In this document: positions 18,814-64,000 of the stretch, in pieces
Layout: every line of letters begins with the position of its first letter
Numbering within the stretch: the stretch's first letter is position 1
NCBI GenBank assembly: GCA_013204585.1
Contig: JABMNL010000035.1
Coordinates: 10,803-74,802, forward strand
Length of the DNA: 64,000 nucleotides
From: SAR202 cluster bacterium
GTDB taxonomy: Bacteria > Chloroflexota > Dehalococcoidia > Lucifugimonadales > UBA3495
Direction of reading: 5' to 3'
Program-made: the position numbers and the translations under genes
The notes under the pieces: generated by a model
What the model was told of the DNA's origin: nothing
Seen by the model: the letters and a program-made list of their open reading frames with translations, nothing else
The model's database searches: none

Positions 18814-20313
18814 CTAAGGCAAGATGGCGCGGCTGGCAGCTTGAATGGTGTCAATCAGCGGCTTGGGATAAACGCCCAGCCAAATAATGGCCGCCATACC
18901 AGAACCCAACACCGTCAACAACGTAAGGGATGGCCGCTGCGTCAGGGCGGGGTGCGCTTGCAAGAGGTCTCCGCCGCCATCGGCGGCCGGGGCCGGCTCG
19001 ATGTACATCTGGCGAATAATCTGCAGGTAGTAATACAGGGAGATTAGGCTGCTAAAAATCGCCAAGCCAGCCAGCCAGAGCAAGCCCTCAGTCGCCACGG
19101 CGGTAAAGAGGTAAAACTTGATGGTGAACCCAGCGAAGATGGGCAAACCTGCCAGGGAGAACATGCCCATGGCCATTGACGCCGCCAAGAATGGCTGATG
19201 GTCTGCCAGGCCGCCCAGGTCGGCAATCATCTCTTTGCCAGTCATGTTAAAGAAAGAAATTATTGCCGCGAAGACCACCAGGTTGGTGATTGAGTAGCCG
19301 ACCAAATAGAACATCACACCGTTGGAGGCCAGGTCAGAACTTGATGAAAGCGCAGCGATACCGGCCAGAATAAAACCGACGTGGCCGATGCTGGAATAGG
19401 CCATTAACCGTTTCAGGTTTTTCTGGGCTAGGGCCACGAAATTACCCACTAGCATGGAAGCGCCAGCCAACACCGCGATAATTAGCTGCCACTGTTCCCA
19501 GCGGTCTCCAGCGGGGACAAACCCTTCCGCAACCAACCGCAAAATCAGGGCAAATGCCGCCGCCTTAGAGCCGATGGCCAGATAGGCGGTTACCGGATAG
19601 GGCGCTCCCTCATAAACGTCGGGGGCCCACATATGGAAGGGCACTGCGGAGACCTTGAACATTAGCCCCACCAGTATCAATGCCACGCCAACCCAGAGGG
19701 CCGGGCTAACCTCTGCGGCCAACGCCAGCGCAGAGGCGATGTCGTCGAATTTGGTCACGCCCACCGTGCTGTAAACCATGCTCACGCCGTAGAGCAATAT
19801 GGCCGAGGAAACCGCGCCGATGATGATGTACTTCAGTGCGCTTTCGTTGGATCTGGCATCGCCTTTGGCATATGCCGCTAGCACATAAAGGCTGAAGCTG
19901 AGCAGTTCCAAAGCGATGTAGGCCGTCAGCAGTTCCCGCGACTGGGCCATGATGTTCATACCCAGGATTGAGAACAGCAGAATTCCGTAGAACTCGCCCT
20001 GGTGGTCAAGTTTGTTCTTAACGAAATCCATGGAACTGAGGATGATGAACACGCCCAGACCCATGAAAAAGATTTTGAAGAAAAGGGCAAAAGCGTCCAC
20101 AGCCAACAGGCCGTCGTAGAGTAGCTCCTCCTCGTCCCACAACATGACCAGAGACCCAGCGATTAAGGCCAGGAGACCGGCGATGGAAAGCCACGGCAAG
20201 AATCCCTTCCGGTCTTTGGGTAGGAAAAGGTCAACTACAAAAACCAGAAACGCCAAGCCTGCCAGAGCAAATTCCGGCGTCAGTAATTCAAGATTGTCGG
20301 TGAGGTTATTCAA
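18814..20313 (-). CDS. nuoN: NADH-quinone oxidoreductase subunit N
   Basis: ALELLS, ALKYIIIG, FKVSAVPFHMWAPDVYEGAP and KRLMAYSSIGH. Confidence 0.95.
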   Translation of the reverse strand: MNNLTDNLELLTPEFALAGLAFLVFVVDLFLPKDRKGFLPWLSIAGLLALIAGSLVMLWDEEELLYDGLLAVDAFALFFKIFFMGLGVFIILSSMDFVKNKLDHQGEFYGILLFSILGMNIMAQSRELLTAYIALELLSFSLYVLAAYAKGDARSNESALKYIIIGAVSSAILLYGVSMVYSTVGVTKFDDIASALALAAEVSPALWVGVALILVGLMFKVSAVPFHMWAPDVYEGAPYPVTAYLAIGSKAAAFALILRLVAEGFVPAGDRWEQWQLIIAVLAGASMLVGNFVALAQKNLKRLMAYSSIGHVGFILAGIAALSSSSDLASNGVMFYLVGYSITNLVVFAAIISFFNMTGKEMIADLGGLADHQPFLAASMAMGMFSLAGLPIFAGFTIKFYLFTAVATEGLLWLAGLAIFSSLISLYYYLQIIRQMYIEPAPAADGGGDLLQAHPALTQRPSLTLLTVLGSGMAAIIWLGVYPKPLIDTIQAASRAILP

Positions 20314-20319
20314 TGGCGG

Positions 20320-21831
20320 CTACACCCCTGGAATCGTCTGGACGCCAACGTTGATGACTCGCATCAACGGTTCCGGCCAGACGCCGACAAAGATAATGAT
20401 TCCCACAAAGGCTGCGCCAACAGACATTTCGATGGGGCTGGCATCCTTAAGATCGGGCCACTGAGGGTCTGCCTCGCCCAAGAAAGTGCGCGCAAGTAGA
20501 CGCAGAATATAAACCGCAGTCAGCGCTGCGCCTATGACGGCAATAATAGCCAATGGCATATAGGTACGGAACGCGCCGACAAACACCATGAACTCGGCAA
20601 CGAACCCACTTAGCCCTGGCAAGCCCAAAGAAGCCAGACCGGCTATGGCGAAGAAGAAACTGTTGACCGGCATCCGGCCGACGAGACCTTTGAGTACCAT
20701 GATGTCTCTGGTGTGAGTCTGATGATAAATCGCTCCAACCAGTAGGAACATCAGGCCCGTCATGACGCCATGGGAGAACATCTGGAGCACCGCGCCGCCC
20801 ATGCCGACATTGTCCAGGGTGGCGATACCAATAATCACATAGCCCATATGGCTAACGCTGGAATATCCGATGATGTACTTCAGGTCCTTCTGAGACATGG
20901 CCGAAACCGCGCCATAGATGACGTTCACCGCGCCCAAGCTGACCAACACCGGCATCCAGTTGTCGGCGCCCTCGGGCAGCAGGAATATGCCAACCCGGAT
21001 GATGCCGTAGGCCCCCAGTTTCATCAGTACGCCAGCATGGAGCATGCTTACCGCAGTGGGTGCGGCCACGTGGCCGTCGGGCGACCAAGTATGGAAGGGC
21101 CAAAGGCCAGCCAGCACGCCAAAGCCCACCATGAACAGTGGGAACACCCAGGTCTGGAACGTAGGATCGAATTGGCCGGTCTGGGCGAGTACCCCCAAGC
21201 CCTGGAGCGAGAATGTCGCCGCGCCGTTGTTGGCAGCCTCGACGTACACCGCCAAGATGCCCACCCAAACTAGGATGCTACCTGCCACCAAGAACAATAT
21301 TAGCTTCATCGCCCCGTATTCTTTGGTGCGCAGGAAGGTCCCGAAATCGGTGCTGCTGCCCCAAACGCCAATCAACAGGTACATGGGCAGCACGGCCAGT
21401 TCGTAGAAGAAGAATAGGAAGAACAAGTCGCGAACGGCGAACACGCCATAGACTCCAGCGGACAAGGCCAAGAGCAGCACAAAGAAGTCCCGGGTGCGGT
21501 GCTTAATGGTCTGGGAAATCAGCACTCCGCCGAACAGAATGATGCCATTCAGCAGTACCAGCGGGGCCGAGATTCCGTCAATACCAAGGGACAGGTTGAT
21601 GTCCAGCGGGCCGGGCAGCCATTCGTAGGTTCTAATGAACTGGAACCCACCCAAGTCGTAGTCGTACCGGGCGAATATGATTAGCGACAGGGCCAGTGAA
21701 ATACCAGATACGAAGATGGCGAAATACCAGGCTTCTTTCTTATCTTCGCCCGGCATAAACATCATCAACAGCGACCCAGCAAGTGGCACCATTATCAGCA
21801 GCAGCAGCGCTACTTGATTGAAATCATTCAT
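20320..21831 (-). CDS. nuoM: NADH-quinone oxidoreductase subunit M
   Basis: FFFYELAVLP, PFHTWSPDGHVAAP, KLGAYG and SLGLPGLSGFVAEF. Confidence 0.95.
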   Translation of the reverse strand: MNDFNQVALLLLIMVPLAGSLLMMFMPGEDKKEAWYFAIFVSGISLALSLIIFARYDYDLGGFQFIRTYEWLPGPLDINLSLGIDGISAPLVLLNGIILFGGVLISQTIKHRTRDFFVLLLALSAGVYGVFAVRDLFFLFFFYELAVLPMYLLIGVWGSSTDFGTFLRTKEYGAMKLILFLVAGSILVWVGILAVYVEAANNGAATFSLQGLGVLAQTGQFDPTFQTWVFPLFMVGFGVLAGLWPFHTWSPDGHVAAPTAVSMLHAGVLMKLGAYGIIRVGIFLLPEGADNWMPVLVSLGAVNVIYGAVSAMSQKDLKYIIGYSSVSHMGYVIIGIATLDNVGMGGAVLQMFSHGVMTGLMFLLVGAIYHQTHTRDIMVLKGLVGRMPVNSFFFAIAGLASLGLPGLSGFVAEFMVFVGAFRTYMPLAIIAVIGAALTAVYILRLLARTFLGEADPQWPDLKDASPIEMSVGAAFVGIIIFVGVWPEPLMRVINVGVQTIPGV

Positions 21832-21899
21832 GATAGACAGTCCGTCACCAGATGCGCAGAGCCGAAGTTAGCAATTGTTATGAAGAGTTCAGCGCACAT

Positions 21900-23843
21900 T
21901 TACACTGTCCTCAACCAAACAAAAATGCTCAAGCCAATCGTCCCCAGGGCCATTCCCAGCACATAGGCATAAACGTGTCCGGTAATATGCAGCCGCATCT
22001 TGATGCCGACCTCTCGCGCCACATCGGCGGGGCCGTTCACGATAATGTCATTAACGATTGCCCGGTCGAAATACGCGATGAAGCCAGAGATACCTAACAC
22101 CACTCGGTCGATGGTCCACTGATAGACCTCATCGAAGTAATATTTGTTTTCGATAACGTTGAGAATCCAGGAAAAACGCGAACGCGCGTAGTCGAGATCT
22201 ATGCTCCGTTTGGCGTAGGTCAGATAAGCGAAGATGAAGGCACCAACGGCCAGGACAATGGAAACCGCGCCCAGCCAGACCTCGAAGTGGAACTCTTCCC
22301 CGTGGCCAAAGAACACGAAGGTGCCTATTCCGCCGAAATCGCCGGGCCAGTTGAAACTGATGAGACCGAACCCTAAGGCGAGCACTCCCAACAACGCCAT
22401 CGGCATGGTCATTCCGATGGGCGATTCGTGGGCGTGGTTGTTCTTTTCCTTCAAGTCACCGAAGAACACGATGAACATCGCCCGCCCCATGTAGAGCGCG
22501 CTCAGCAGGGCGGTGAATAAGGCCATTACCAAGAACGCGGTGTTCCGATTGTCACTCACTGCCAGCAATATCTCATCCTTGCTCCAGAAGCCGGCCAAGA
22601 TGGGAATACCGCCAAGGGACAATGCGCCAATGGAGAAGACCAGGGCAGTCAAGGGCATGACCTTCCTGAGTCCGCCCATTTCGCCAGTGTCTTGAAATTC
22701 AGTGCTGTGTAGGACGCTGCCTGCTCCCAGGAACAACAGCGCCTTGGAGAACCCGTGGGCCATCAGATGGAATATGGCAGCGGTGTAGCCGAACGCTCCC
22801 AAGGACAGCATCATCAAACCCAGGTGGCTAATGGTGGAGTAGGCCAGTATCCGCTTTAGGTCGGTGGAAACCAGGGCGATGGAAGCGGCCATCAGCGCAG
22901 TAACCAAGCCAACGATAGCCACAATCAGTAACGGGTCGGCGTCGTAGGCCGAGAAGATGGGGTAGGTGCGGGCCACCAGGTAAACTCCCGCCACCACCAT
23001 CGTCGCAGCATGAATCAGCGCGCTAACCGGGGTCGGGCCTTCCATGGCGTCGGGCAACCAAACGTGGAACGGTACTTGGGCCGACTTTCCCATTGCGCCC
23101 AAGAACAGCAGCAGCGCAGCTGCGGTGGCCACTCCTTGACTCATACCTTCTTGTCCATGGGTCATTACCCCAACACGTACGGCCTCGAAGGCGTCCGTCA
23201 TGCCAAAGCTACCCACGTCCCGCCAGATGAGCAAAATGCCAATCAACAGCCCAACATCGCCTATTCTGGTGACGATAAATGCTTTCTTGGCCGCTTCCCT
23301 CGGCTCGGGCCGTTCGTGCCAGAACCCAATCAACAGATACGAGCAGATTCCCACCAGCTCCCAGGCGATGTAGAGCAGCAGGAAGTTGTCGGCCAGCACC
23401 AGGGTCAACATGGCGGCGGCAAACATGGAATGGACGGCGAAATACCAGCCAAAACGAGGGTCGCCTTCCATGTAGACCATGGAGTAAATCTGGACCATCA
23501 GGGCTACAAAGGTCACCAAGCCCAGCATCACGATGGTCAGCGGATCAATTAGTATTCCCCAGTGCAGACTGACGCTGCCGACCGCCCCGATTACTCCGGC
23601 GTTGAACCAACTCCGGTCATAATCGCAGGTCAGCATTCCGGAGTTTTCGCTGATGAAACAACCCATGGTGGCGACATCGGCATTCAGCCAAGAATTGAGC
23701 ACGAACCAGAAGACGACAAACCCACCGGCGATGGCCAAAATTGACAGCCACGAGCCACGCTCGGGCAGATATCTGCCAAAGACCACAATCACCGGCGCGG
23801 CGGCGAAGCAGAACACTGGTATCAGCCAAGCCCATTGCATCAA
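21900..23843 (-). CDS. nuoL: NADH-quinone oxidoreductase subunit L
   Basis: GKSAQVPFHVWLPDAMEGPTPVSALIHAATMV and GFWSKDEIL. Confidence 0.96.
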   Translation of the reverse strand: MMQWAWLIPVFCFAAAPVIVVFGRYLPERGSWLSILAIAGGFVVFWFVLNSWLNADVATMGCFISENSGMLTCDYDRSWFNAGVIGAVGSVSLHWGILIDPLTIVMLGLVTFVALMVQIYSMVYMEGDPRFGWYFAVHSMFAAAMLTLVLADNFLLLYIAWELVGICSYLLIGFWHERPEPREAAKKAFIVTRIGDVGLLIGILLIWRDVGSFGMTDAFEAVRVGVMTHGQEGMSQGVATAAALLLFLGAMGKSAQVPFHVWLPDAMEGPTPVSALIHAATMVVAGVYLVARTYPIFSAYDADPLLIVAIVGLVTALMAASIALVSTDLKRILAYSTISHLGLMMLSLGAFGYTAAIFHLMAHGFSKALLFLGAGSVLHSTEFQDTGEMGGLRKVMPLTALVFSIGALSLGGIPILAGFWSKDEILLAVSDNRNTAFLVMALFTALLSALYMGRAMFIVFFGDLKEKNNHAHESPIGMTMPMALLGVLALGFGLISFNWPGDFGGIGTFVFFGHGEEFHFEVWLGAVSIVLAVGAFIFAYLTYAKRSIDLDYARSRFSWILNVIENKYYFDEVYQWTIDRVVLGISGFIAYFDRAIVNDIIVNGPADVAREVGIKMRLHITGHVYAYVLGMALGTIGLSIFVWLRTV

Positions 23844-23868
23844 ACGGTCACCCTATGTGCTTGGGCAT

Positions 23869-24189
23869 TTACCATTTCATCAAATCAATCTCATCGACGT
23901 TGACCGTCGACTTGTTACGGAACATTCGCAGAATTATGGCCAACGCCAAGCCGACCTCGGCCGCAGCCACGGTGATGATAAAAATCGCAATTAACTGACC
24001 ATCGAAGTTGGCAAAGCTGCCGATACCTTCCATGTGGGAGGCGGCGGCAATGAGGTTGATGTTCACCGCGTTCAGCATTAGCTCGATGGACATCACAATG
24101 AGCACTGCGGAGCGTCGGGCCATGACGCCGTAGATGCCGATGGCGAATAGGGCGGCGCTGAGGAGTTGGAACCAGACCAAATCAACCAT
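23869..24189 (-). CDS. nuoK: NADH-quinone oxidoreductase subunit K
   Basis: MSIELMLNAVNINL and VAAAEVGLALAI. Confidence 0.95.
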   Translation of the reverse strand: MVDLVWFQLLSAALFAIGIYGVMARRSAVLIVMSIELMLNAVNINLIAAASHMEGIGSFANFDGQLIAIFIITVAAAEVGLALAIILRMFRNKSTVNVDEIDLMKW

Positions 24190-24192
24190 CGT

Positions 24193-24717
24193 CTAGTTAT
24201 CTCCGTCGTCTGGGCTGGCCGCGTCGTCGGAACGCGCCCCGTCATCGGAACGCGCAATAATAATCGCCCCAATTAAGGCCACCAAGAGAACCAAGGACGC
24301 AATTTCAAAGGGGACGGCCCAAGTGGTGAAAAGTGCTTCGCCAATGCCGGTCAAAGAAGCGCTCTGGGAATGAGTTCCCTCAACTGAGTTGATGGCGAAG
24401 GCCGGGACAAGGATCCCCATTAGCGCCAATGCGGCGATTGCGGCCAAGGGCCACTGTTTGTTGTCGGTGATGCGGGGATACTCGTCGTTCCGGGTCATCA
24501 TGATGGCAAACAGAAGGACGATGATTATCGCCCCGCCGTAAATCAATACTTGCACCAGAGCGAGGAACTCGGCGAACAGCACCAAATAGATGCCGGCCAC
24601 TGCCACCAAAGAGACCAATAGGGACAACGCTGCGTGCACTACATTACGGGTAGCGACTACACCCAGCCCGCCGCCAATGGTCAATACGGCCAATAATATG
24701 AAAACGAACCAAGCCAT
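24193..24717 (-). CDS. nuoJ: NADH-quinone oxidoreductase subunit J
   Basis: AEFLALVQVLIYGGAI and PFEIASLVLLVALIGAI. Confidence 0.93.
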   Translation of the reverse strand: MAWFVFILLAVLTIGGGLGVVATRNVVHAALSLLVSLVAVAGIYLVLFAEFLALVQVLIYGGAIIIVLLFAIMMTRNDEYPRITDNKQWPLAAIAALALMGILVPAFAINSVEGTHSQSASLTGIGEALFTTWAVPFEIASLVLLVALIGAIIIARSDDGARSDDAASPDDGDN

Positions 24718-25284
24718 CTACTTGGACTCAGCCTCGGCAGCCGCTGGCCCGGTGCCCGTGTCACCGCCCGTTACTGCTTTCACCCGTTTGGTCGGCGGTA
24801 TCCAGTCCGTTGCCTTCTGATGCTTCTGTCCAATTTCCAGCAAAGCCGACAAGTCGACACGGTCTCCGTTGCGGTTGTAAGTGCTCATTTCGTGTTCATG
24901 GGTCATCACGATTGCATCGAAATTACACACCTCGACGCAAATCCCGCAAAGTATACACCGGTTGAGATTGATCTCGAACGTATCAACGATCTTTCTACGG
25001 GTACTTTTTTCCTCTATGAAGAGAGGATTATCTTTCATCACCGCCGACATGCATTGGGTCGGGCAACCCCGTATACAGACCATGCAACTGGTGCAGTAGG
25101 GTTCACCCACAGTCTCATCCCAAGTCAGCGCCGGAAAGCCCATGAACCGGTCTTTCACCGGGGTTGGCTCGTCATGACGTTTCAGCAGATTGCCGGTGGA
25201 CGGATATTGGCGCGTCACCGGCGCCCGCAACCCATGCATGGTCGACACCAGAGTCACAACCAACCCTTTCAGGCTGTTAAACAT
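24718..25284 (-). CDS. nuoI: NADH-quinone oxidoreductase subunit I
   Basis: Two CxxCxxCxxxC motifs (CTSCMVCIRGCP and CILCGICVEVC). Confidence 0.92.
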   Translation of the reverse strand: MFNSLKGLVVTLVSTMHGLRAPVTRQYPSTGNLLKRHDEPTPVKDRFMGFPALTWDETVGEPYCTSCMVCIRGCPTQCMSAVMKDNPLFIEEKSTRRKIVDTFEINLNRCILCGICVEVCNFDAIVMTHEHEMSTYNRNGDRVDLSALLEIGQKHQKATDWIPPTKRVKAVTGGDTGTGPAAAEAESK

Positions 25285-25287
25285 CTG

Positions 25288-26448
25288 TTAGTCTCCTCCT
25301 GCCGGGGCATTCGCCGCTGCTTTGCGTTGGGCTTGCAACGCCTCCTGCCTGCTCCGAACCTGAGCCACCAACCGTGTGGAGCCGGTCATCCGCTTGTATA
25401 TCAAGTAGCCAACCACTAATAGAGCTGTTGACGACATGGCGGTGAGAGACCAGGCTGGCCATTCGTAGAACTGGTACACGGCGGTCATCACCACTGACAG
25501 GAAGGACATTGGCACCATTACTTTCCAGGCAAAGGCCATTAATTGGTCGATACGCAGCCGTGGGAAGGTACCCCGAATCCAGAAGATGACCATGATGACC
25601 ATGTAGACCTTGAACAGGAACCAGATGATTTCCCAGTTGCCAGACAGTCCAGGCCCGGACCAGCCACCGAAGAACAGGATTACGGTGAGCGCGGCAACGG
25701 CAAAGGTATTGATGTATTCAGCCAGGAAGAAGACCGACCAGTGGGCACCGCTGTATTCGACGAAAGGCCCGCCGACAATTTCAGACTCGGCGAAGTAAAT
25801 ATCAAAGGGTGTCCGGCCTACTTCCGCCAGCCCGGCGATGAAGAACAGTACCAGTCCCAAAGGCTGCACCAGCAAGAAAATGTATTCGTCTTGCGCGCTG
25901 ACTATCTCTCTTAAGTCCAGCGACTGGGCCAGCATGGCCACCGAGACTGCCACCATGATGATAGGTATCTCGTAGCTGATTAGTTGGGCCGCTGCCCTCA
26001 GTCCGCCCAGGGTTCCATATTTGTTGGCCGAACCCCAGCCCGCCAACACTAGGCCCAGAATGCCCACCACCGAGAAGGCGATGATGTAGAACAGCCCCAT
26101 ATTCAGGTTCTGTATCACCGCGCTCTGAGTGCCGGGGATGGTCACCCAAATCATGAACGCCGAAACAACAACTATGATGGGCGCAGCCCAGAAGATGGCC
26201 TTGTCCGACGAGGCCGGGATGATGTCTTCTTTGAGGATAAGTTTCAGGGCGTCGGCCACCGGCTGCATCAAGCCCATGGGGCCGGTGCGAGTGGGCCCCA
26301 AACGCAGTTGAAGCCGCCCCAGTACCTTGCGCTCCAGCCAGGTCAATGACAGCACCACAATGGACAGAGTGGTGAACATGACCAGCAGACCAACCACTAT
26401 CCAGATGAAATCAGACAGGGCTATTGTTAAGAGAATGGTGGCCGGCAT
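25288..26448 (-). CDS. nuoH: NADH-quinone oxidoreductase subunit H
   Basis: WLERKVLGRLQLRLGP, QPVADALKL, SYEIP and RGTFPRLRIDQL. The ATG at 26448 overlaps the nuoD stop, so the track's 26514 start is an overextension. Confidence 0.95.
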   Translation of the reverse strand: MPATILLTIALSDFIWIVVGLLVMFTTLSIVVLSLTWLERKVLGRLQLRLGPTRTGPMGLMQPVADALKLILKEDIIPASSDKAIFWAAPIIVVVSAFMIWVTIPGTQSAVIQNLNMGLFYIIAFSVVGILGLVLAGWGSANKYGTLGGLRAAAQLISYEIPIIMVAVSVAMLAQSLDLREIVSAQDEYIFLLVQPLGLVLFFIAGLAEVGRTPFDIYFAESEIVGGPFVEYSGAHWSVFFLAEYINTFAVAALTVILFFGGWSGPGLSGNWEIIWFLFKVYMVIMVIFWIRGTFPRLRIDQLMAFAWKVMVPMSFLSVVMTAVYQFYEWPAWSLTAMSSTALLVVGYLIYKRMTGSTRLVAQVRSRQEALQAQRKAAANAPAGGD

Positions 26449-27578
26449 TAGCGGTCCACCTCGCCCAGCACGATGTCCAACGCGCCGAGAATCACCACGC
26501 AATCGGCGATCCAACAGTCTTTCAACATGTGCTTCAACGCCGAAAGGTTGCAGAAAGAGGGTGGTCGCACTTTGACCCTATAGGGCTTGTCGCTGCCATC
26601 GCTAATCAGGTAAACGCCAATCTCCCCCCTCGGGTTCTCAGCCCGCACGTAGACCTCGCCAGCGGGTGGGCGGAGTAGTCGCCGTCCCAGGGATGACTCC
26701 ACGCTGCCTTCCGGCAATTGGTCCAGCGCTTGCTCGACGATTCGGATCGACTGGTAAATCTCTTGAACACGCAGGTAATACCGGTCCCAGCAATCGCCAT
26801 CTAAGCCTATCGGCACGTCAAAGTCGAGCCGGTCATAGACCGAGTACGGGGCGGCTTTTCTGACGTCGTAGTCCACGCCAGAAGCACGAAGACAAGGCCC
26901 GGTTAGCCCGTAGTCAATTGCGTCCTCAGCCGTCATTACTGCGATGCCCTTCAAACGGGCCAGGAATATTTCATTGAAACTGAGGAGTTTGTCCGACTCA
27001 TCGGTGTCCGCTTTTACCAGCTCTAATAATTCTCTAACCTGCGGGACGAAGTCGTCTGGCACATCTTCTTTCAAACCGCCGAACCGGAAGTAATTGTGCA
27101 TCATCCGGGCGCCGGAAACGGCCTCGAACAGGCCTTGGATGCGCTCCCTGCCCCGGAAACAAAACATGGAAGGAGTCATTGCGCCAGCGTCCAATCCCAT
27201 GGTGGCAATGAACAGCATGTGGCTGGCAATTCGGTTTAATTCGCAGAGGATGACTCGGATGTACTCGGAGCGTTCCGAGACCTCCAGTCCCATGAGCTTC
27301 TCAACCGCGCGACAGTAAATTTGCTCGTTGTTGAAGTTGGCAATGTAGTCCATGCGGTCAAACAGGGTGATGACCTGGTTGTACTGTTCGCCTTCGCACA
27401 GTTTTTCCGAACCCCGATGGAGATAGCCGATGTGAGGTTCCACATCCACTATCTTTTCCCCGTCCACCCACAGCACCATTCGAAAGACGCCATGAGTCGA
27501 GGGGTGCTGCGGTCCCATATTCAGCAGCATCTCGATTGGTTCGCCGTTACGGTTTGTTGTTTTTGAAACCTGGGCCAT
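26448..27578 (-). CDS. nuoD: NADH-quinone oxidoreductase subunit D
   Basis: NMGPQHPSTHGVFR, GYLHRG, DRMDY and DIVLGEVDR. Confidence 0.97.
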   Translation of the reverse strand: MAQVSKTTNRNGEPIEMLLNMGPQHPSTHGVFRMVLWVDGEKIVDVEPHIGYLHRGSEKLCEGEQYNQVITLFDRMDYIANFNNEQIYCRAVEKLMGLEVSERSEYIRVILCELNRIASHMLFIATMGLDAGAMTPSMFCFRGRERIQGLFEAVSGARMMHNYFRFGGLKEDVPDDFVPQVRELLELVKADTDESDKLLSFNEIFLARLKGIAVMTAEDAIDYGLTGPCLRASGVDYDVRKAAPYSVYDRLDFDVPIGLDGDCWDRYYLRVQEIYQSIRIVEQALDQLPEGSVESSLGRRLLRPPAGEVYVRAENPRGEIGVYLISDGSDKPYRVKVRPPSFCNLSALKHMLKDCWIADCVVILGALDIVLGEVDR

Positions 27579-27580
27579 TT

Positions 27581-27913
27581 TTATTCCGGTTGGCTGTCGA
27601 TTGGACGACCGATAAACCTGATTTTCGGCTCCTGGGGCGGCTCAACTTCACTACTCATCCAGACCTCGTCGTTGAAGTAAAAACCGGCATCAATCAGGGT
27701 CGCTTCCAAAACCCCCATCTTTTCGCAATCTTCTAGATATTCCGATACCTGGCGGCGCAGCGAATTTTTTGCATCTTCAGCCGTGTCGCCAAACCCGGTA
27801 ATTACCAACTCAGGACAAACCGCCTGGTAGCCAGTCCCGGCCTTGGACTCTTCAATCTGATAAACAATCCGGTCGAAAGGCGCTTTCTTCCCGCGCTTGG
27901 GTTTATTGGCCAC
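27581..27913 (-). CDS. HicB-like fold protein (orphan, inside the nuo operon)
   Basis: GYQAVCPELVITGFGDTAEDAKNSLRRQVSEYLE matches the HicB N-terminal pattern (Y-x-A-x-x-P-x-L...G-x-T-x-E-x-A). Confidence 0.6.
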   Translation of the reverse strand: MANKPKRGKKAPFDRIVYQIEESKAGTGYQAVCPELVITGFGDTAEDAKNSLRRQVSEYLEDCEKMGVLEATLIDAGFYFNDEVWMSSEVEPPQEPKIRFIGRPIDSQPE

Positions 27914-27925
27914 GTGCAGTTGCCT

Positions 27926-28207
27926 TTATTCGCCTTCGCCTTCAAACGATACGGCGGCTTCCATGAACTCCAATTGGACTTCAGTCTCTTCGTCAACGCC
28001 CAAATACCCGGCGTCGGCTAGGACTGCGGCCAACGTATCAGTGCCGTCGTGGGACTCAATCCAGGCCCGCATGATTTGTATCAGTTCATCCTGGGCGGCT
28101 TCCAGTGTTTCGCCTTCCCCTTCCAGGTTCAGGTCGTCGATACGAGCGACAACCCGGGCCTCATCACGGTCTATCTTGGCGGTCAAGACCACTGTCTCCA
28201 TAATCAT
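27926..28207 (-). CDS. HicB-like fold protein, paralog of the neighbouring gene
   Basis: VVARIDDLNLEGEGETLEAAQDELIQIMRAWIE. AGGAGG SD upstream. Shares an L-x-DAG-[YF] motif with 27581-27913. Confidence 0.55.
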   Translation of the reverse strand: MIMETVVLTAKIDRDEARVVARIDDLNLEGEGETLEAAQDELIQIMRAWIESHDGTDTLAAVLADAGYLGVDEETEVQLEFMEAAVSFEGEGE

Positions 28208-28219
28208 CTAGCCTCCTGG

Positions 28220-28831
28220 CTAAAACTCTTCATATTCATTGAACGGAAATTCCTTGCGCCCTGGGTACCCTTCGAACCCTTCATAGAGCAGCAGCGGCGA
28301 AAGGTCAGGATGGCCGTCGAAGCTAACGCCAAACAGGTCGTGGGCCTCGCGCTCATACCAATCTGCCGCCCGCCACACGGCAGTCACAGACGGAACGATG
28401 GCATCGGAGTATGGCACATTAGTCCGAAGAGCAAAGGTGCGCTCGGGCTCTAGGGACTGAAAAACGTAGACCATTTCAAAATATTCGGAATAGTCCACGC
28501 AGGACATACAAAGCAGCATTTTGGCCGCAATGCGCGGGTCGTCTTTGATTAGTTGACAGACTTGCCGGGTGTTTTGCTTCGCAACGCTGACCTGGGGGAT
28601 GTCGTCTAAAGCGCCAGCTTGAGGATCAAATTCTTTGAGAACCTCTAGCGAAACGTCCAGCAATTCTCGCCCTGCCGGGGTCAGTGCTGCCAGCGGGTCA
28701 GCGGGGGGGCCGTCGTCAGCATGGCCGTGGCCAGCAGCTGCCGGTTTTGCCGGGGCGTCCATTATAGGCTCCGGCGGGGCATCTTTTATAGGCTCCGCCG
28801 GGGCTTCGTGATTCTCTTCTTGCTCGGCCAT
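28220..28831 (-). CDS. nuoC: NADH-quinone oxidoreductase subunit C
   Basis: ADWYEREAHDLFGVSFDGHPDL and GYPGRKEFP, with an acidic/Pro-rich N-terminal extension. Confidence 0.92.
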   Translation of the reverse strand: MAEQEENHEAPAEPIKDAPPEPIMDAPAKPAAAGHGHADDGPPADPLAALTPAGRELLDVSLEVLKEFDPQAGALDDIPQVSVAKQNTRQVCQLIKDDPRIAAKMLLCMSCVDYSEYFEMVYVFQSLEPERTFALRTNVPYSDAIVPSVTAVWRAADWYEREAHDLFGVSFDGHPDLSPLLLYEGFEGYPGRKEFPFNEYEEF

Positions 28832-29370
28832 TATTTTTTGGCGTCGCGCATGATTTTTTCTTGGAGCTTTAGTATGCCAAACATCAGCGCTTCTGGCCGT
28901 GGTGGACAGCCCGGCACATAGACGTCAACGGGCACGATGTGGTCTACGCCCATCACCACCGAATACGAGCGGTAATAGGGACCGCCGTTGGTGGCGCAGC
29001 TTCCCATGGCAATAACCCACTTGGGCTCTGGCATTTGTTCGTAGAGCAGGCGAATGGGGTCGGCCATTTTCTTGACCACCGTGCCCGCCACAATCATCAC
29101 GTCCGACTGACGCGGCGACGGCCAAGTGACCACACCGAAGCGATCAAAATCGTAGTGGGCCATGTAGGTCGAAATCATCTCGATGGCGCAGCAGGCAAGG
29201 CCAAACGACAGGGTCCAAAGGGACGACTTACGTGCCATGGCAAATAATTGGTCGGTGGAGGTGGTAATAACCCCAGGCACTTTTCCAGCGGTGGCCTGGT
29301 CAAACAAACTGGAACCTGGAACGTTGCCCCGCCCGTCTGGCATCCCCGGCCCTACTATTATTTCTGCCAT
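28831..29370 (-). CDS. nuoB: NADH-quinone oxidoreductase subunit B
   Basis: [20 protein letters not shown] and [13 protein letters not shown]. Confidence 0.97.
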
Positions 29371-29780
29371 TCAAGGACCCCTTTCTTCCAGGCGTAAACA
29401 ATGGCGAAAAATAGCACTCCCAAGAACATCATCATAGCGTAGAAGGGAAGTGCGTTGGCCTCGTTTATCTTTTCTTGCATGAAAATCACCGCCCAAGGAA
29501 ACAAGAACACTGCTTCAACGTCAAAAATTAGGAACAAAATCGCGAAGATATAGAACCGTACGTTAATGTTGGACCAGGCATAAGGAGTGGGCGGGATACC
29601 ACATTCGTAAGTGGTGAATTTAGCTTCGGAGTAACGCCTGGCGGAGAGGACGCGCGAAGCGGAGAACATGCCACCAATTGCCAATGTGGCGACCACCGCG
29701 GAAATTGCAACCGCGGTCCAGTTCTCCGTGAACAGTTCTGGGTTAAATGCTTGAAGTATTATCGTGGGGAAAAAAGACAT
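29358..29780 (-). CDS. nuoA: NADH-quinone oxidoreductase subunit A
   Basis: [27 protein letters not shown] and [10 protein letters not shown]. Confidence 0.95.
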
Positions 29781-60563: not shown

Positions 60564-61331
60564 TTAGGGTTTCCAGAAACGTTCTTCGATAAAATTCCAG
60601 CCCTTGGGCAGGAGTTTCCCTTTCATCTCTTCAATCATCCCAGGGTGACCGCAGGCGTAGACCTTGGTGTCGTCCTTGGGAAGGTTGAACTTCGCCAAGT
60701 ATTCCTCCGCAATGGCATTGACCCGTCCGGTTACGCCTTTCCAACCGGCGTTTCTGGACTCGGTGGGACGGCTGACCGTGGGCACGAATTTGACCGTCTC
60801 AGGATACTTGGCAGCCAATTCGTAGAGTTCTTTGTCGAAGGCGAATTCATCGACGTAGCTGGCGCCGTACATGATGTAGAAAACGTGCCCTTCATCCACA
60901 CCGTCATGAAGGTACTGGCGGAGCATACTGACCGAAGGCGCCAAACCGGTGACGGTGGACAGCATGAAGTGGTGGTGGAACTTCGGGTCCAGGGTGAAAA
61001 TGCCCTTGGCCCTGGGCCGGACGGACATTTGGTCGCCAATCTTCAGGGCGAACATCTTGGGAGTTAGTTCACCGTCGGGCACCAACTCGACAAAAATCTC
61101 CAAGTCCTTTTCGTAGGGCGCGGAGACGATGGAATAGGCCCGTTCGATTTTGCCCAGGCCCAGCGTGCAATATTGGCCAGGCTTAAACGAGAAATCTTCG
61201 GACGGTCTCAGCTTGATGACCATCAGGTCATCTGTCACGTCCCGACGCTCCACCAATGTCGCCGTGGGAAACGCTGGGTTGGGGGTCAGGTCCGGTCCAC
61301 CGGCCTGGTCCGTTGTGGTTACCTCTGCCAT
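60564..61331 (-). CDS. fpr: Ferredoxin--NADP(+) reductase (bacterial FPR type)
   Basis: FKPGQY, RAYSIVS, TVTGLAP, PTVSRP and YACGHPGMI...EERFW. The AAGGAG SD favours ATG 61331. Confidence 0.85.
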   Translation of the reverse strand: MAEVTTTDQAGGPDLTPNPAFPTATLVERRDVTDDLMVIKLRPSEDFSFKPGQYCTLGLGKIERAYSIVSAPYEKDLEIFVELVPDGELTPKMFALKIGDQMSVRPRAKGIFTLDPKFHHHFMLSTVTGLAPSVSMLRQYLHDGVDEGHVFYIMYGASYVDEFAFDKELYELAAKYPETVKFVPTVSRPTESRNAGWKGVTGRVNAIAEEYLAKFNLPKDDTKVYACGHPGMIEEMKGKLLPKGWNFIEERFWKP

Positions 61332-61356
61332 TGTTACTCCTTGGTCCTGTGCCATT

Positions 61357-61386
61357 GATTAACGCTACTCGGATTAACGCCACTCG
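61357..61386. repeat. 15-bp tandem repeat upstream of fpr
   Basis: gattaacgctactcg / gattaacgccactcg (one mismatch). Confidence 0.8.
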
Positions 61387-61452
61387 GCTCGGAGGCCAAG
61401 ATTCGATCTATCAAATTCTAGTTATTTTTCGCTGCTTTCTTCTGGGCCACGT

Positions 61453-64000
61453 CTAGTCTATTTTGTTAATACGCGCCCTGCAGATATTAAGTCCCGGCAC
61501 CCGTGATGCGGGCTCCATGTCTTCGCTGTTTTGCAGGTCTATCGCCAACTGTCCGAAGAGCGAAGTGGAGGCGACAACCCCGATTGGAACGGACTCGTTA
61601 ATCCGGGCCAAACCGGCTAGCCTACCCGTGCCAATATTCATCGACATTTCAACCTGCACCTTGCCGCCATCCTCAATTGACCATGAGGCGGCGTCGGCGG
61701 GGTTCATCTCAACAAATTCATCTCGTTGGATGGTATTGCGGCGTCCTTTGACGATTTTAATTTCTCTTTCTTGCTGCAAGAGCACCCGTCCCGGCACGAA
61801 CCAGAGCGGGAAGTCGGCATTCGCCGCTTCTTCAACCACCGCAAAGGCCGGGGTAATGGGCTCGGCTCTGCGCTCTTTGAACCCGCCTTCGTAGAGAATT
61901 GGCGAACCCTTGCCGTCGCTCTGTATCGGCCATTGCAGTCCCCGTTCTTCTCGGCTGGCGTACAGCACCTGAGTCGGCTGGGGACTCTCCATTTGAGTTT
62001 TTAAAACAAGTCCGCCTTGACCCGCCAGTTTCCGGTAGGAAACCTCGGCGTAAATAGGCGCCACACGGGCTATCTCATCCATTGTCTCAGAGGGTGATGT
62101 TAGTAGAAAGCCTGGCGCTCCCATCTTGCGGGCCACCTCACAAATCACCCGCAACTCAGGGCGCGCGCCTCCCTCGGGTAGGCTCTTGCCAGGCTTGATC
62201 CGCTGAATACGCCGTTCGAGGTTGGTGTAGGTGCCGTCTTTTTCCGCGAAGGTCGCCCTGGGGAATACCACGTCGGCCCGTTGGGCTGTGGCGCTCAAGA
62301 AAGAGTCGCTGACCGCCAAGAATTCCAGGTTGTCCAGGGCGGCTAGTCCATCACCCAGCTTGCCATTACTGAAATTGGGGCTATCCCCAATAACGAATGC
62401 GGCCTTAACCCGACCGTTTGCGGCCCCTTCGATAATCTCGGCCAACCCTAATCCTGGAGCATCGGGGATAGATGAGTCCCAGATGGCTTCGACTTCTTGC
62501 CGATCTTTCGCGTTCGACACACTCCGGTATCCCGGCAATCGGTCGGGCACGCAGCCCACGTCCCAAGCGCCCTGCTCGTTGGCTCCGGCCCTCATGGGGT
62601 AGATACCCGCGCCTTCTTTGCCCAGGTTGCCGGTAACCAATGCCAGGTTAGTCAGGGATAAGACACAGCCTCGGGCCATTTCCGGCAGTATGTTGTCCAA
62701 AGCGTAGACCAGCGCTCCGGTTTCAGCTTCACCATACAGGCGTGCCGCTTCGGCGATGTCGGCAGCGGGAACCTGGGTCGCCACGGAGACTTCGTCCAAG
62801 TCGAGGGCGTTGAGGGCGTATTGAAGGGTAGCCGGGCTTTCGCAGTTCTCATTTAGCCAATCGTCGTCTTGGAATCCCTGGTCGATGACCGACTTGAGCA
62901 ACCCGCCCAGCAACAGCCGTTCGGTGCCCGGAGCGGGCCGCAGCCAAACATGGGCGTAGCGAGTCAGCTCCACTTCCCTGGAGTCAATGACTACCAACTT
63001 GGTGTTCTTACGGGCTGCTCGCTTGATTGGCACGCCCACCACGTTGTGTTCTTCAGTGACATTGCTACTGAATACTATGATGCAGCCGGCTTCTTCCAGG
63101 TCCCAGATGGGATTGGTGGCCCCGGCGTAACCCAATGACTGCTCCAGACCCCGGGTAAGTTCTGGCTGGGTGTTGGAGGTCTGGTCTACGTTGTTGGACT
63201 TCATGGCCGTTCGGGCAAACTTCTGGGCCAGGTAATGCTCTTCGTTGGTACTGTTCGGGGAGGTCAGGAAGGCGAAAGACTCGCCGGAATATTCAGCGAA
63301 ACGATTGGCCACGACTTCCAATGCTTCGTCCCAAGTCGCTGCCACTAATTCGCCGTCGCGACGCACCAGAGGAGTCTGCAACCTGCTGGCGTCGTTCACA
63401 AATTGCAGGCCAAATTTGCCCTTGAAGCAGGCTTGGCCGTGATTAGCCGGAGAATTGAACTCGGGAACGGCCCGGATTAGGACACCGTCATCATTGTACT
63501 CCACATTCATCTGGCAGCCGACGGGGCAGAGGGGACAGATAGTGCGCTCGACCTTGCGGGGTTTTTCCCACTTGTTGTCCCGCTCGACCAACGCGCCCAC
63601 GGGGCAAACGTCGATGCAGGCACCACAAAACTCGCAGCCCGACTCGAGAAGGGAGGTGCCAAACGAGGTGCCAACCAACGCTTGTCCGCTGCGCATGACG
63701 AACCCGATGGCATCGTCGCCCCGCAGTTCTTCGCAGGCGCGAACACAACGTCCGCAGACAATACAGAGGTTGTAGTCGCGGTCATAAAAGGGGTCGGCCA
63801 CTTCCAGGGGAATCTCCCGGTACTTGTAGTTCAGTGGCGATTCCAGGTTCATACCCAAATAGCGGACGGTGTCTTTTAGCTCACAACGCTCGTTCTTGGG
63901 ACAGGTGACGCAGCGGTCGTTGACCGAGACATGGCGCAGGCATACGTCGGTGGGGCCGCAGATGTCGATTCGGTGACAGGTGAGGCAGCCGCTGGGATGC
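61453..64000 (-). CDS. NuoG/FdhA-like Fe-S molybdopterin-fold protein (5' end beyond the window)
   Basis: The frame is open to the window edge (HPSGCLTCHR...CVTCPKNERCEL). It has CIVCGRCVRAC, CEFCGACIDVCP and CPLCPVGC...C motifs and a MopB-fold body. Confidence 0.85.
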   Translation of the reverse strand, partial: HPSGCLTCHRIDICGPTDVCLRHVSVNDRCVTCPKNERCELKDTVRYLGMNLESPLNYKYREIPLEVADPFYDRDYNLCIVCGRCVRACEELRGDDAIGFVMRSGQALVGTSFGTSLLESGCEFCGACIDVCPVGALVERDNKWEKPRKVERTICPLCPVGCQMNVEYNDDGVLIRAVPEFNSPANHGQACFKGKFGLQFVNDASRLQTPLVRRDGELVAATWDEALEVVANRFAEYSGESFAFLTSPNSTNEEHYLAQKFARTAMKSNNVDQTSNTQPELTRGLEQSLGYAGATNPIWDLEEAGCIIVFSSNVTEEHNVVGVPIKRAARKNTKLVVIDSREVELTRYAHVWLRPAPGTERLLLGGLLKSVIDQGFQDDDWLNENCESPATLQYALNALDLDEVSVATQVPAADIAEAARLYGEAETGALVYALDNILPEMARGCVLSLTNLALVTGNLGKEGAGIYPMRAGANEQGAWDVGCVPDRLPGYRSVSNAKDRQEVEAIWDSSIPDAPGLGLAEIIEGAANGRVKAAFVIGDSPNFSNGKLGDGLAALDNLEFLAVSDSFLSATAQRADVVFPRATFAEKDGTYTNLERRIQRIKPGKSLPEGGARPELRVICEVARKMGAPGFLLTSPSETMDEIARVAPIYAEVSYRKLAGQGGLVLKTQMESPQPTQVLYASREERGLQWPIQSDGKGSPILYEGGFKERRAEPITPAFAVVEEAANADFPLWFVPGRVLLQQEREIKIVKGRRNTIQRDEFVEMNPADAASWSIEDGGKVQVEMSMNIGTGRLAGLARINESVPIGVVASTSLFGQLAIDLQNSEDMEPASRVPGLNICRARINKID

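Follow-up and report, generated by a model that had tools for sequence, protein, structure and literature searches.

A formate dehydrogenase-derived subunit without its Mo/W ligand in marine SAR202 Chloroflexota: a possible detached NADH-input module for complex I

Gene organization of the locus

The window analyzed here is a 64,000-nucleotide stretch (contig C24:10803-74802) of a marine SAR202-type Chloroflexota genome of 3.13 Mb, an assembly that is 92% complete and on which all gene counts and negative searches given below for this source genome rest. At its end the window enters a four-gene unit on the minus strand, encoding a NuoE-like protein, a NuoF-like protein, a large subunit of the FdsA/NuoG type, and then a ferredoxin-NADP+ reductase (FNR). 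The large-subunit gene runs past the window end; with the rest of the contig fetched, it spans L002:2256-5138 and encodes 960 amino acids, its 5′ end (L002:4804-5138) lying outside the window. The NuoF-like (580 aa) and NuoE-like (159 aa) genes are found directly upstream of it, on the same strand and just beyond the window, which is where the first-pass annotation of this DNA had suggested that such homologues be sought. Its statement that fpr follows on the same strand is likewise borne out, FNR being located 97 bp downstream of the large subunit and followed by mutS. No minus-strand terminator was found in this 97-bp gap, and the scan for promoters and terminators gave nothing decisive. The features of the unit within the window are as follows.

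60564..61355, minus strand: Fpr-type FNR, 263 aa (Pfam FAD_binding_6 and NAD_binding_1)
61453..64000, minus strand, running past the window end: FdsA/NuoG-like large subunit, C-terminal 848 of 960 aa inside the window (open reading frame, translation)
62569..62601, minus strand: degenerate catalytic Arg motif YPMRAGANEQG, with the Arg333 equivalent kept
63145..63195, minus strand: former Mo/W-ligand segment NNVDQTSNTQPELTRGL, with the Sec/Cys position deleted and the His replaced
63427..63537, minus strand: MopB-domain [4Fe-4S] motif (A1/N7 position) with a conserved Lys after it (sequence, alignment, clade conservation)
63604..63765, minus strand: ferredoxin-like domain with two complete four-Cys motifs, at the A3 and A2 positions of the Rhodobacter capsulatus formate dehydrogenase (RcFDH) (sequence; Pfam Fer4_Nqo3/Fer4_7; ligands 100% conserved)
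63883..63999, minus strand: His-ligated [4Fe-4S] motif (RcFDH cluster A4 or complex I N5 position) with a Cys-rich insert, residues 113-151 of the full protein

The large subunit matches the Pfam domains Fer2_4, NADH-G_4Fe-4S_3, Fer4_Nqo3, Molybdop_Fe4S4, Molybdopterin, and Molydop_binding, so that the MopB fold with its N-terminal [4Fe-4S] domain and C-terminal cap is present (PF04879, PF00384, PF01568). It scores below the cut-off of both the formate dehydrogenase (FDH) alpha-subunit model TIGR01591 (484.1 bits; cut-off 666.25) and the NuoG model TIGR01973 (212.9 bits; cut-off 470.05), the latter alignment beginning at model position 95. The AlphaFold2 (AF2) model has a pLDDT of 89.4 and a pTM of 0.92, and its top structural matches found by Foldseek are FdsA-type FDHs (TM ~0.8), ahead of NuoG.

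Loss of the Mo/W site in a Dehalococcoidia clade

The most conspicuous feature of the large subunit is the segment that would carry the metal ligand in a catalytic FDH. The first-pass annotation had read the Sec/Cys and His of this segment as replaced by Q and P, and the HMMER alignment with an F420-dependent FDH (PDB 9t1s) gives the same assignment, Q under Sec and P under His; the MAFFT alignment, made with Sec-containing relatives and with Escherichia coli FdhF as given in the K-12 record, sets a one-residue gap against SeCys140 and Q against His141. Both alignments agree in placing no Cys, Sec, or His at the former ligand site. About 110 close homologues from marine metagenomes, some of them named as SAR202/Dehalococcoidia, carry the same segment, the former ligand residue being variable.

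A scan of species-representative genomes yielded 80 loci, 47 of which have the ligand-less form; these are all from species-level genomes of Chloroflexota/Dehalococcoidia and have the one-residue deletion in common. They form a monophyletic clade (support 100) nested within catalytic Sec/Cys FDHs having the His and an intact Arg motif, the catalytic enzymes around the clade being those of Dehalococcoidales, Kuenenia, Methanothrix, and Desulfobacteraceae. The position of the His is occupied by Q in the source protein and by R, K, H, N, D, or A in clade members. A few Chloroflexota intermediates bridge the catalytic FDHs and the clade. In three of them (L055, L066, and L069), the Cys at the ligand position is kept, the His is gone, and the Arg motif is partly lost; their F subunits are already without the ferredoxin domain described below. 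The genes for the NuoE-like, NuoF-like, and large subunits, hereafter the cassette, neighbor one another in each of the 47 clade loci having upstream sequence.

The distribution of conserved residues differs markedly between the domains of the large subunit. Every one of the 24 Fe-S ligands is invariant (100%) across the clade, and the N-terminal Fe-S domains keep 29 of 31 FDH-invariant columns, with a mean pairwise identity of 0.66 in the clade versus 0.46 in catalytic FDHs. The MopB core retains 55 of 107 such columns (identity 0.46 versus 0.55), and the C-terminal pterin cap only 9 of 33 (0.36 versus 0.50). The clade also has invariant residues of its own. These patterns provide evidence that selection has moved from the catalytic domain to the Fe-S wire. 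The equivalents of Arg333 and Lys44 of E. coli FdhF are kept in the source protein, as the first-pass annotation had pointed out for the Arg; this Arg can hardly be given weight, however, since it varies across the clade, where only 47% of the proteins still have it, and the clade has also lost G, Q, N, and V from the motif.

With regard to cofactor supply, an FdhD-type sulfurtransferase (PF02634) was not found in the source genome, and the MobA model TIGR02665 gave only weak matches there, which are uninformative, this model passing its own cut-off in no more than one control genome. MoaC and MoeA are present, and therefore the presence of molybdenum cofactor (Moco) genes cannot decide whether the cofactor has been lost. 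Judged from its sequence in respect of both cofactor binding and formate oxidation, the large subunit is not a functional formate dehydrogenase, because the catalytic residues are lost, the constraint on the pterin domain is relaxed, and no FdhD was found; on this point the first-pass annotation is upheld.

A second NuoF is encoded in 15 of 40 clade genomes, and in 9 of the 12 genomes examined it is part of a second cassette, the large subunit of which shows canonical Cys-His and Arg motifs. The ligand-less cassette is thus kept beside a true FDH and therefore does something else. The second cassettes (L100-L107 and L109, all from other Dehalococcoidia genomes) consist of NuoE/NuoF/FdhA and show no His/Cys cluster motif in the stretch of sequence covered.

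Fe-S clusters of the large subunit

The Fe-S motifs, of which at least four had been reported as intact, are all complete. They comprise a [2Fe-2S] motif, a pair of full dicluster motifs, the [4Fe-4S] motif of the MopB domain, and that of the His-ligated cluster, with the 24 ligands invariant as described above. The NuoG-type N-terminal set ([2Fe-2S], His-ligated [4Fe-4S], and a further [4Fe-4S]) is included, with its ligands all present and invariant. The cluster A2 position, occupied here, is missing from Thermus Nqo3 (PMC7171172).

The extra Cys residues noticed in the first reading are real and correspond to C126, C132, C142, C145, and C151 of the full protein. They fall within the His-ligated cluster motif, which contains a Cys-rich insert of 26-30 aa and as a whole comprises one His and seven Cys, ligands enough for two [4Fe-4S] clusters; clade members keep all eight without exception (100%). 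The insert is not peculiar to the clade, though, since it is common to the catalytic FDHs of Methanothrix, Kuenenia, Desulfobacteraceae, and Dehalococcoidales, and it is absent from every solved FdsA/NuoG sequence aligned. The confidence of the AF2 model is low in this region (residues 121-143).

NuoE- and NuoF-like partners

Matches to Pfam and NCBIfam models confirm the thioredoxin-like [2Fe-2S] fold of the NuoE-like protein and the Complex1_51K, SLBB, and NADH_4Fe-4S domains of the NuoF-like protein (F subunit). The latter also has an N-terminal [2Fe-2S]-type domain, in which only three Cys are visible (C39, C70, C74), and its best relatives in the Protein Data Bank are NfnB, StnB, and HydB (450-544 bits), with FdsB and Nqo1 at 320-345 bits.

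In the catalytic Sec-FDH relatives, the F subunit ends in a 77-aa tail with two four-Cys motifs. It corresponds to the C-terminal 2×[4Fe-4S] ferredoxin-side domain (clusters B3/B4) by which the B subunits of the bifurcating BfuABC family are defined (PMC9304861). The F subunits of all clade members lack this tail and its four-Cys motifs; the lineage has therefore lost the ferredoxin site as well as the formate site. The NADH/FMN site and the Fe-S chain have been kept in the lineage, and bifurcation has probably been lost together with the missing domain. The possibility of a bifurcating module, raised in the first-pass annotation, is accordingly unlikely, because the F subunit is without the ferredoxin domain that its catalytic relatives carry.

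Complex I as candidate acceptor

The candidate acceptor lies in the same window.

18814..29780, minus strand: 11-subunit complex I operon nuoABCD-HIJKLMN, with no nuoEFG inside

This operon is the 11-subunit complex I (Nuo11) recognized in the first reading. A 110-aa open reading frame between its nuoC and nuoD (window 27581-27913, minus strand) has no NCBIfam match. The source genome contains a second complete Nuo11 operon (G000 contig C30:7687-18597), 31-62% identical to that of the window and also without nuoEFG; in both operons, nuoD abuts nuoH. The genome has one NuoF gene, that of the cassette, and two MopB proteins, the large subunit and a protein resembling the subunit of alternative complex III (ACIII) or Qrc. 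This other MopB protein (L004:607-3586, contig C48) resembles QrcB/ActB (253.5 bits, below the cut-off of 440) and adjoins a QrcA-like multihaem cytochrome.

Nqr and Rnf were not found in the source genome, nor was a NiFe hydrogenase large subunit, which makes a hydrogenase an unlikely partner of the cassette. A search with E. coli Ndh as the single query revealed no clear type II NADH dehydrogenase (NDH-2), the weak and partial matches (best E = 1e-6) being weak evidence of absence. Matches to SthA have 24-26% identity and are indistinguishable from Lpd-type paralogues. In related genomes the situation is similar: NuoJ is encoded in all 40 clade genomes searched, with two copies in 28, most related genomes having two nuo operons, and the cassette holds the sole NuoF in 25 of the 40. 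Of 121 Chloroflexota genomes sampled, one of them unpublished, 60 gave a match to canonical NuoG, as against none of 13 genomes of the source class. Deep-sea Chloroflexi have been reported to encode nuoEFG apart from an accompanying 11-subunit Nuo (PMC5736913), and Nuo-Bfu complexes have been described (PMC9304861).

We therefore consider the cassette to have about an even chance of being a detached NADH-input module for complex I, because it represents the only recognizable way from NADH to quinone in the genome, combining the sole NuoF-type module with two Nuo11 operons; complex I would be the acceptor by elimination. In the predicted mechanism, the large subunit, descended from a Sec formate dehydrogenase of the electron-bifurcating Fdh-Bfu type, would have lost its Mo/W-pterin site and would serve only as a chain of Fe-S clusters. 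Its two partners, NuoE-like with [2Fe-2S] and NuoF-like with FMN and the NADH site, would join it in an NADH-oxidizing flavoprotein module, in which NADH reduces FMN and electrons pass via the NuoF [4Fe-4S] cluster into the Fe-S wire. The module would then most likely dock on one or both Nuo11 complexes in the role of NuoEFG, with electrons leaving at the region of the His-ligated cluster.

Several observations weigh against such a role in complex I. The cassette is adjacent to nuoB, nuoD, nuoH, nuoI, or nuoL in none of the 80 fetched loci, and the large subunit is FDH-like and not NuoG-like by hidden Markov model score and by fold. It keeps cluster A2 and bears the Cys-rich insert precisely where, in complex I, NuoI is faced, and the F subunit has its extra N-terminal domain. 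Cultured Dehalococcoidia run Nuo11 without an N-module (PMC4959651), so that the membrane complex of this class may have no docking surface for one. The adjacency of FNR points to another partner, and the apparent absence of NDH-2 comes from one query against a 92% complete genome.

Alternative readings

The main rival reading is suggested by the neighboring FNR gene. The cassette may possibly be a soluble NAD(H):NADP(H) oxidoreductase, although we think this rather less probable than not, in which the NuoE/F-like pair oxidizes NADH and the dead subunit wires electrons to the FAD of FNR for reduction of NADP+, or the reverse; it would then be a non-bifurcating analogue of StnABC/NfnABC. Of the 40 clade loci with sufficient sequence, 28 have FNR within 700 bp downstream of the large subunit, as against none of 25 catalytic or intermediate loci, and at the source locus the gap lacks a detectable terminator, as noted above. 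The closer relationship of the F subunit to NfnB, StnB, and HydB than to FdsB and Nqo1 also fits, as does the failure to find PntAB in the source genome. StnABC itself demonstrates that a transhydrogenase can be built from a NuoE/NuoF core, a large subunit whose FdhF-like domain is inactive, and an NADPH flavoprotein, the clusters of the catalytically inactive FdhF-like domain in StnC being needed only for assembly (PMC10482914). The linkage to FNR is not constant, however. In five clade genomes without FNR adjacency, FNR is encoded elsewhere in three and was not found in two, and the cassette is equally conserved there; moreover, the gap between the large subunit and FNR varies from ~20 to 330 bp among clade loci. 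In some of the catalytic or intermediate loci, mutS already lies directly downstream of the large subunit, which suggests that FNR was inserted between the large-subunit gene and mutS. In the source genome, FNR (89.8 bits with model NF008178, below the cut-off) is the single tblastn match of the Fpr type and therefore probably has general duties. A transhydrogenase would, in addition, leave no NADH-to-quinone route.

Less probable again, and in our view rather unlikely, is a free-standing NADH diaphorase that delivers electrons to a soluble acceptor, e.g., ferredoxin or flavodoxin, for the many SAR202 oxygenases; from such an acceptor, electrons might then enter Nuo11, much as cyanobacterial NDH-1 is supplied by ferredoxin. 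The separation of the cassette from nuo genes in all 80 loci and the working of Nuo11 without an N-module in cultured relatives would both be accounted for, and the conserved insert with its putative extra cluster, together with the A1/A2 ligands, could form an exit site. On the other hand, no candidate acceptor gene is conserved in the neighborhood, and the reduction of ferredoxin by NADH is uphill in terms of redox potentials without bifurcation, for which the ferredoxin domain of the F subunit has been lost.

That the large subunit is still a pterin enzyme, with another ligand such as a nearby Ser or Thr or with a different chemistry, is very improbable, even though MoaC and MoeA are encoded in the genome, Arg and Lys are retained in the source protein, and the fold is predicted confidently. 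Around the former ligand, the residues differ from one clade member to another and offer no consistent replacement, 48 FDH-invariant columns are lost across the MopB core and C-terminal cap, and FdhD was not found; the Moco genes may be explained by other SAR202 molybdoenzyme families. Finally, a decaying pseudogene or an assembly artefact, in favor of which there is nothing but the lost catalytic residues, is refuted by conservation and has a negligible chance of being correct: the reading frame is intact in 47 species-level genomes and thousands of metagenome proteins, the Fe-S ligands are fully conserved, and the clade has its own invariant residues.

Comparison with related systems

The cassette is worth comparing with the other systems built on a NuoE/NuoF-type core. 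Like NuoEFG (Nqo2-1-3), the N-module of complex I, it is a three-subunit NADH:Fe-S module, and its large subunit shares with NuoG an N-terminal hydrogenase-like Fe-S domain, a cofactor-less MopB-like domain, and the conserved His-ligated cluster. However, the cassette is encoded apart from the nuo genes, not between nuoF and nuoH, and scores under the cut-offs of the NuoG and NuoF models; the large subunit differs from NuoG in keeping A2, a full-length FDH-like MopB domain, and the Cys-rich insert at the N5 position, and the F subunit differs from NuoF in its N-terminal thioredoxin-like domain. FdsGBA, the NAD+-dependent FDH of Rhodobacter capsulatus (PDB 6TG9/6TGA), agrees with the cassette in gene order and domain architecture, with clusters A1-A5 all represented, and FdsA belongs to the best structural match class (TM ~0.8). 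In clear contrast to FdsGBA, the cassette has neither Cys/Sec nor His, its Arg motif is degenerate, and FdhD/FdsC was not found, while its F subunit is nearer to Bfu-type B subunits than to FdsB.

The nearest catalytic relatives, those of Dehalococcoidales and Kuenenia, are of the Fdh-Bfu type (BfuABC family, PMC9304861) and have both Sec and the C-terminal ferredoxin domain of the F subunit, a combination that is the apparent ancestral state of the cassette and of which the cassette has lost both parts. StnABC/NfnABC (PDB 8OH5, 9BOV) resemble the cassette in having a NuoE/NuoF-type core, a catalytically inactive FdhF-like domain, and an NADP(H) flavoprotein. Their NADPH module is a GltD-like domain fused to the large subunit, whereas the cassette has a separate FNR gene that is not always linked, and a GltD-like NADPH/FAD domain was not found by Pfam in its large subunit; unlike theirs, the B subunit of the cassette lacks the bifurcation clusters.

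The relation to NuoG is less straightforward. The full-length tree groups canonical NuoG with the ligand-less clade, whereas the tree of the Fe-S domains places NuoG outside the group of catalytic FDHs, intermediates, and ligand-less members (support 98). We do not take the full-length grouping at face value because the Fe-S domains, which are equally constrained, place NuoG outside, because the exclusion of NuoG is not rejected by the approximately unbiased (AU) test of the full-length alignment (p = 0.23), and because a relaxation of the MopB domain that took place in parallel could pull the clade and NuoG toward each other. The Cys-rich insert is common to the catalytic relatives and absent from NuoG, and A2 is retained; these two features would favor an independent loss over an origin common with NuoG. 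More tentatively, and with less than an even chance, the cassette would represent a second, independent conversion of a bifurcating Sec-FDH to an NADH-input module of complex I, in which FNR might be a second, NADPH-specific entry. If true, the cassette would offer a present-day counterpart of the step from which NuoEFG arose, still carrying A2, the full MopB body, and a putative extra cluster at the N5 exit.

Implications and minor observations

The source databases label the protein "formate dehydrogenase alpha subunit" or "molybdopterin-dependent oxidoreductase", and in papers on SAR202, formate dehydrogenase is listed as one of the group's C1-oxidation capacities. The large subunit is the only FDH-like MopB protein in the source genome, and thus the annotation of an abundant ocean lineage is concerned, as the sole FDH-like protein of this genome cannot be a formate dehydrogenase. 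The formate dehydrogenase label is misleading, because the module that the large subunit forms with its NuoE/NuoF-like partners probably feeds NADH electrons into complex I; a concrete candidate is thereby provided for the electron input to the Nuo11 complex I of aerobic Dehalococcoidia. Moreover, the loci make up a graded natural series, from Sec-FDH with a bifurcating partner through the intermediates to the ligand-less wire, in which a catalytic subunit is seen becoming an electron wire and which bears on the origin of NuoG.

Two further observations concern the surroundings and the 5′ end of the unit. About 1 kb upstream of nuoE, a 347-aa protein is encoded on the minus strand (L002:8381-9424), which has no Pfam or NCBIfam match and is found in the closest relatives only (77-92% identity). 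A 12-nt tandem repeat of ~4.9 copies (L002:5074-5132) occupies the 5′ end of the large-subunit gene just outside the window; it encodes a (TDQI)n run at the N-terminus, which explains the length of 960 aa compared with ~940 aa in relatives.

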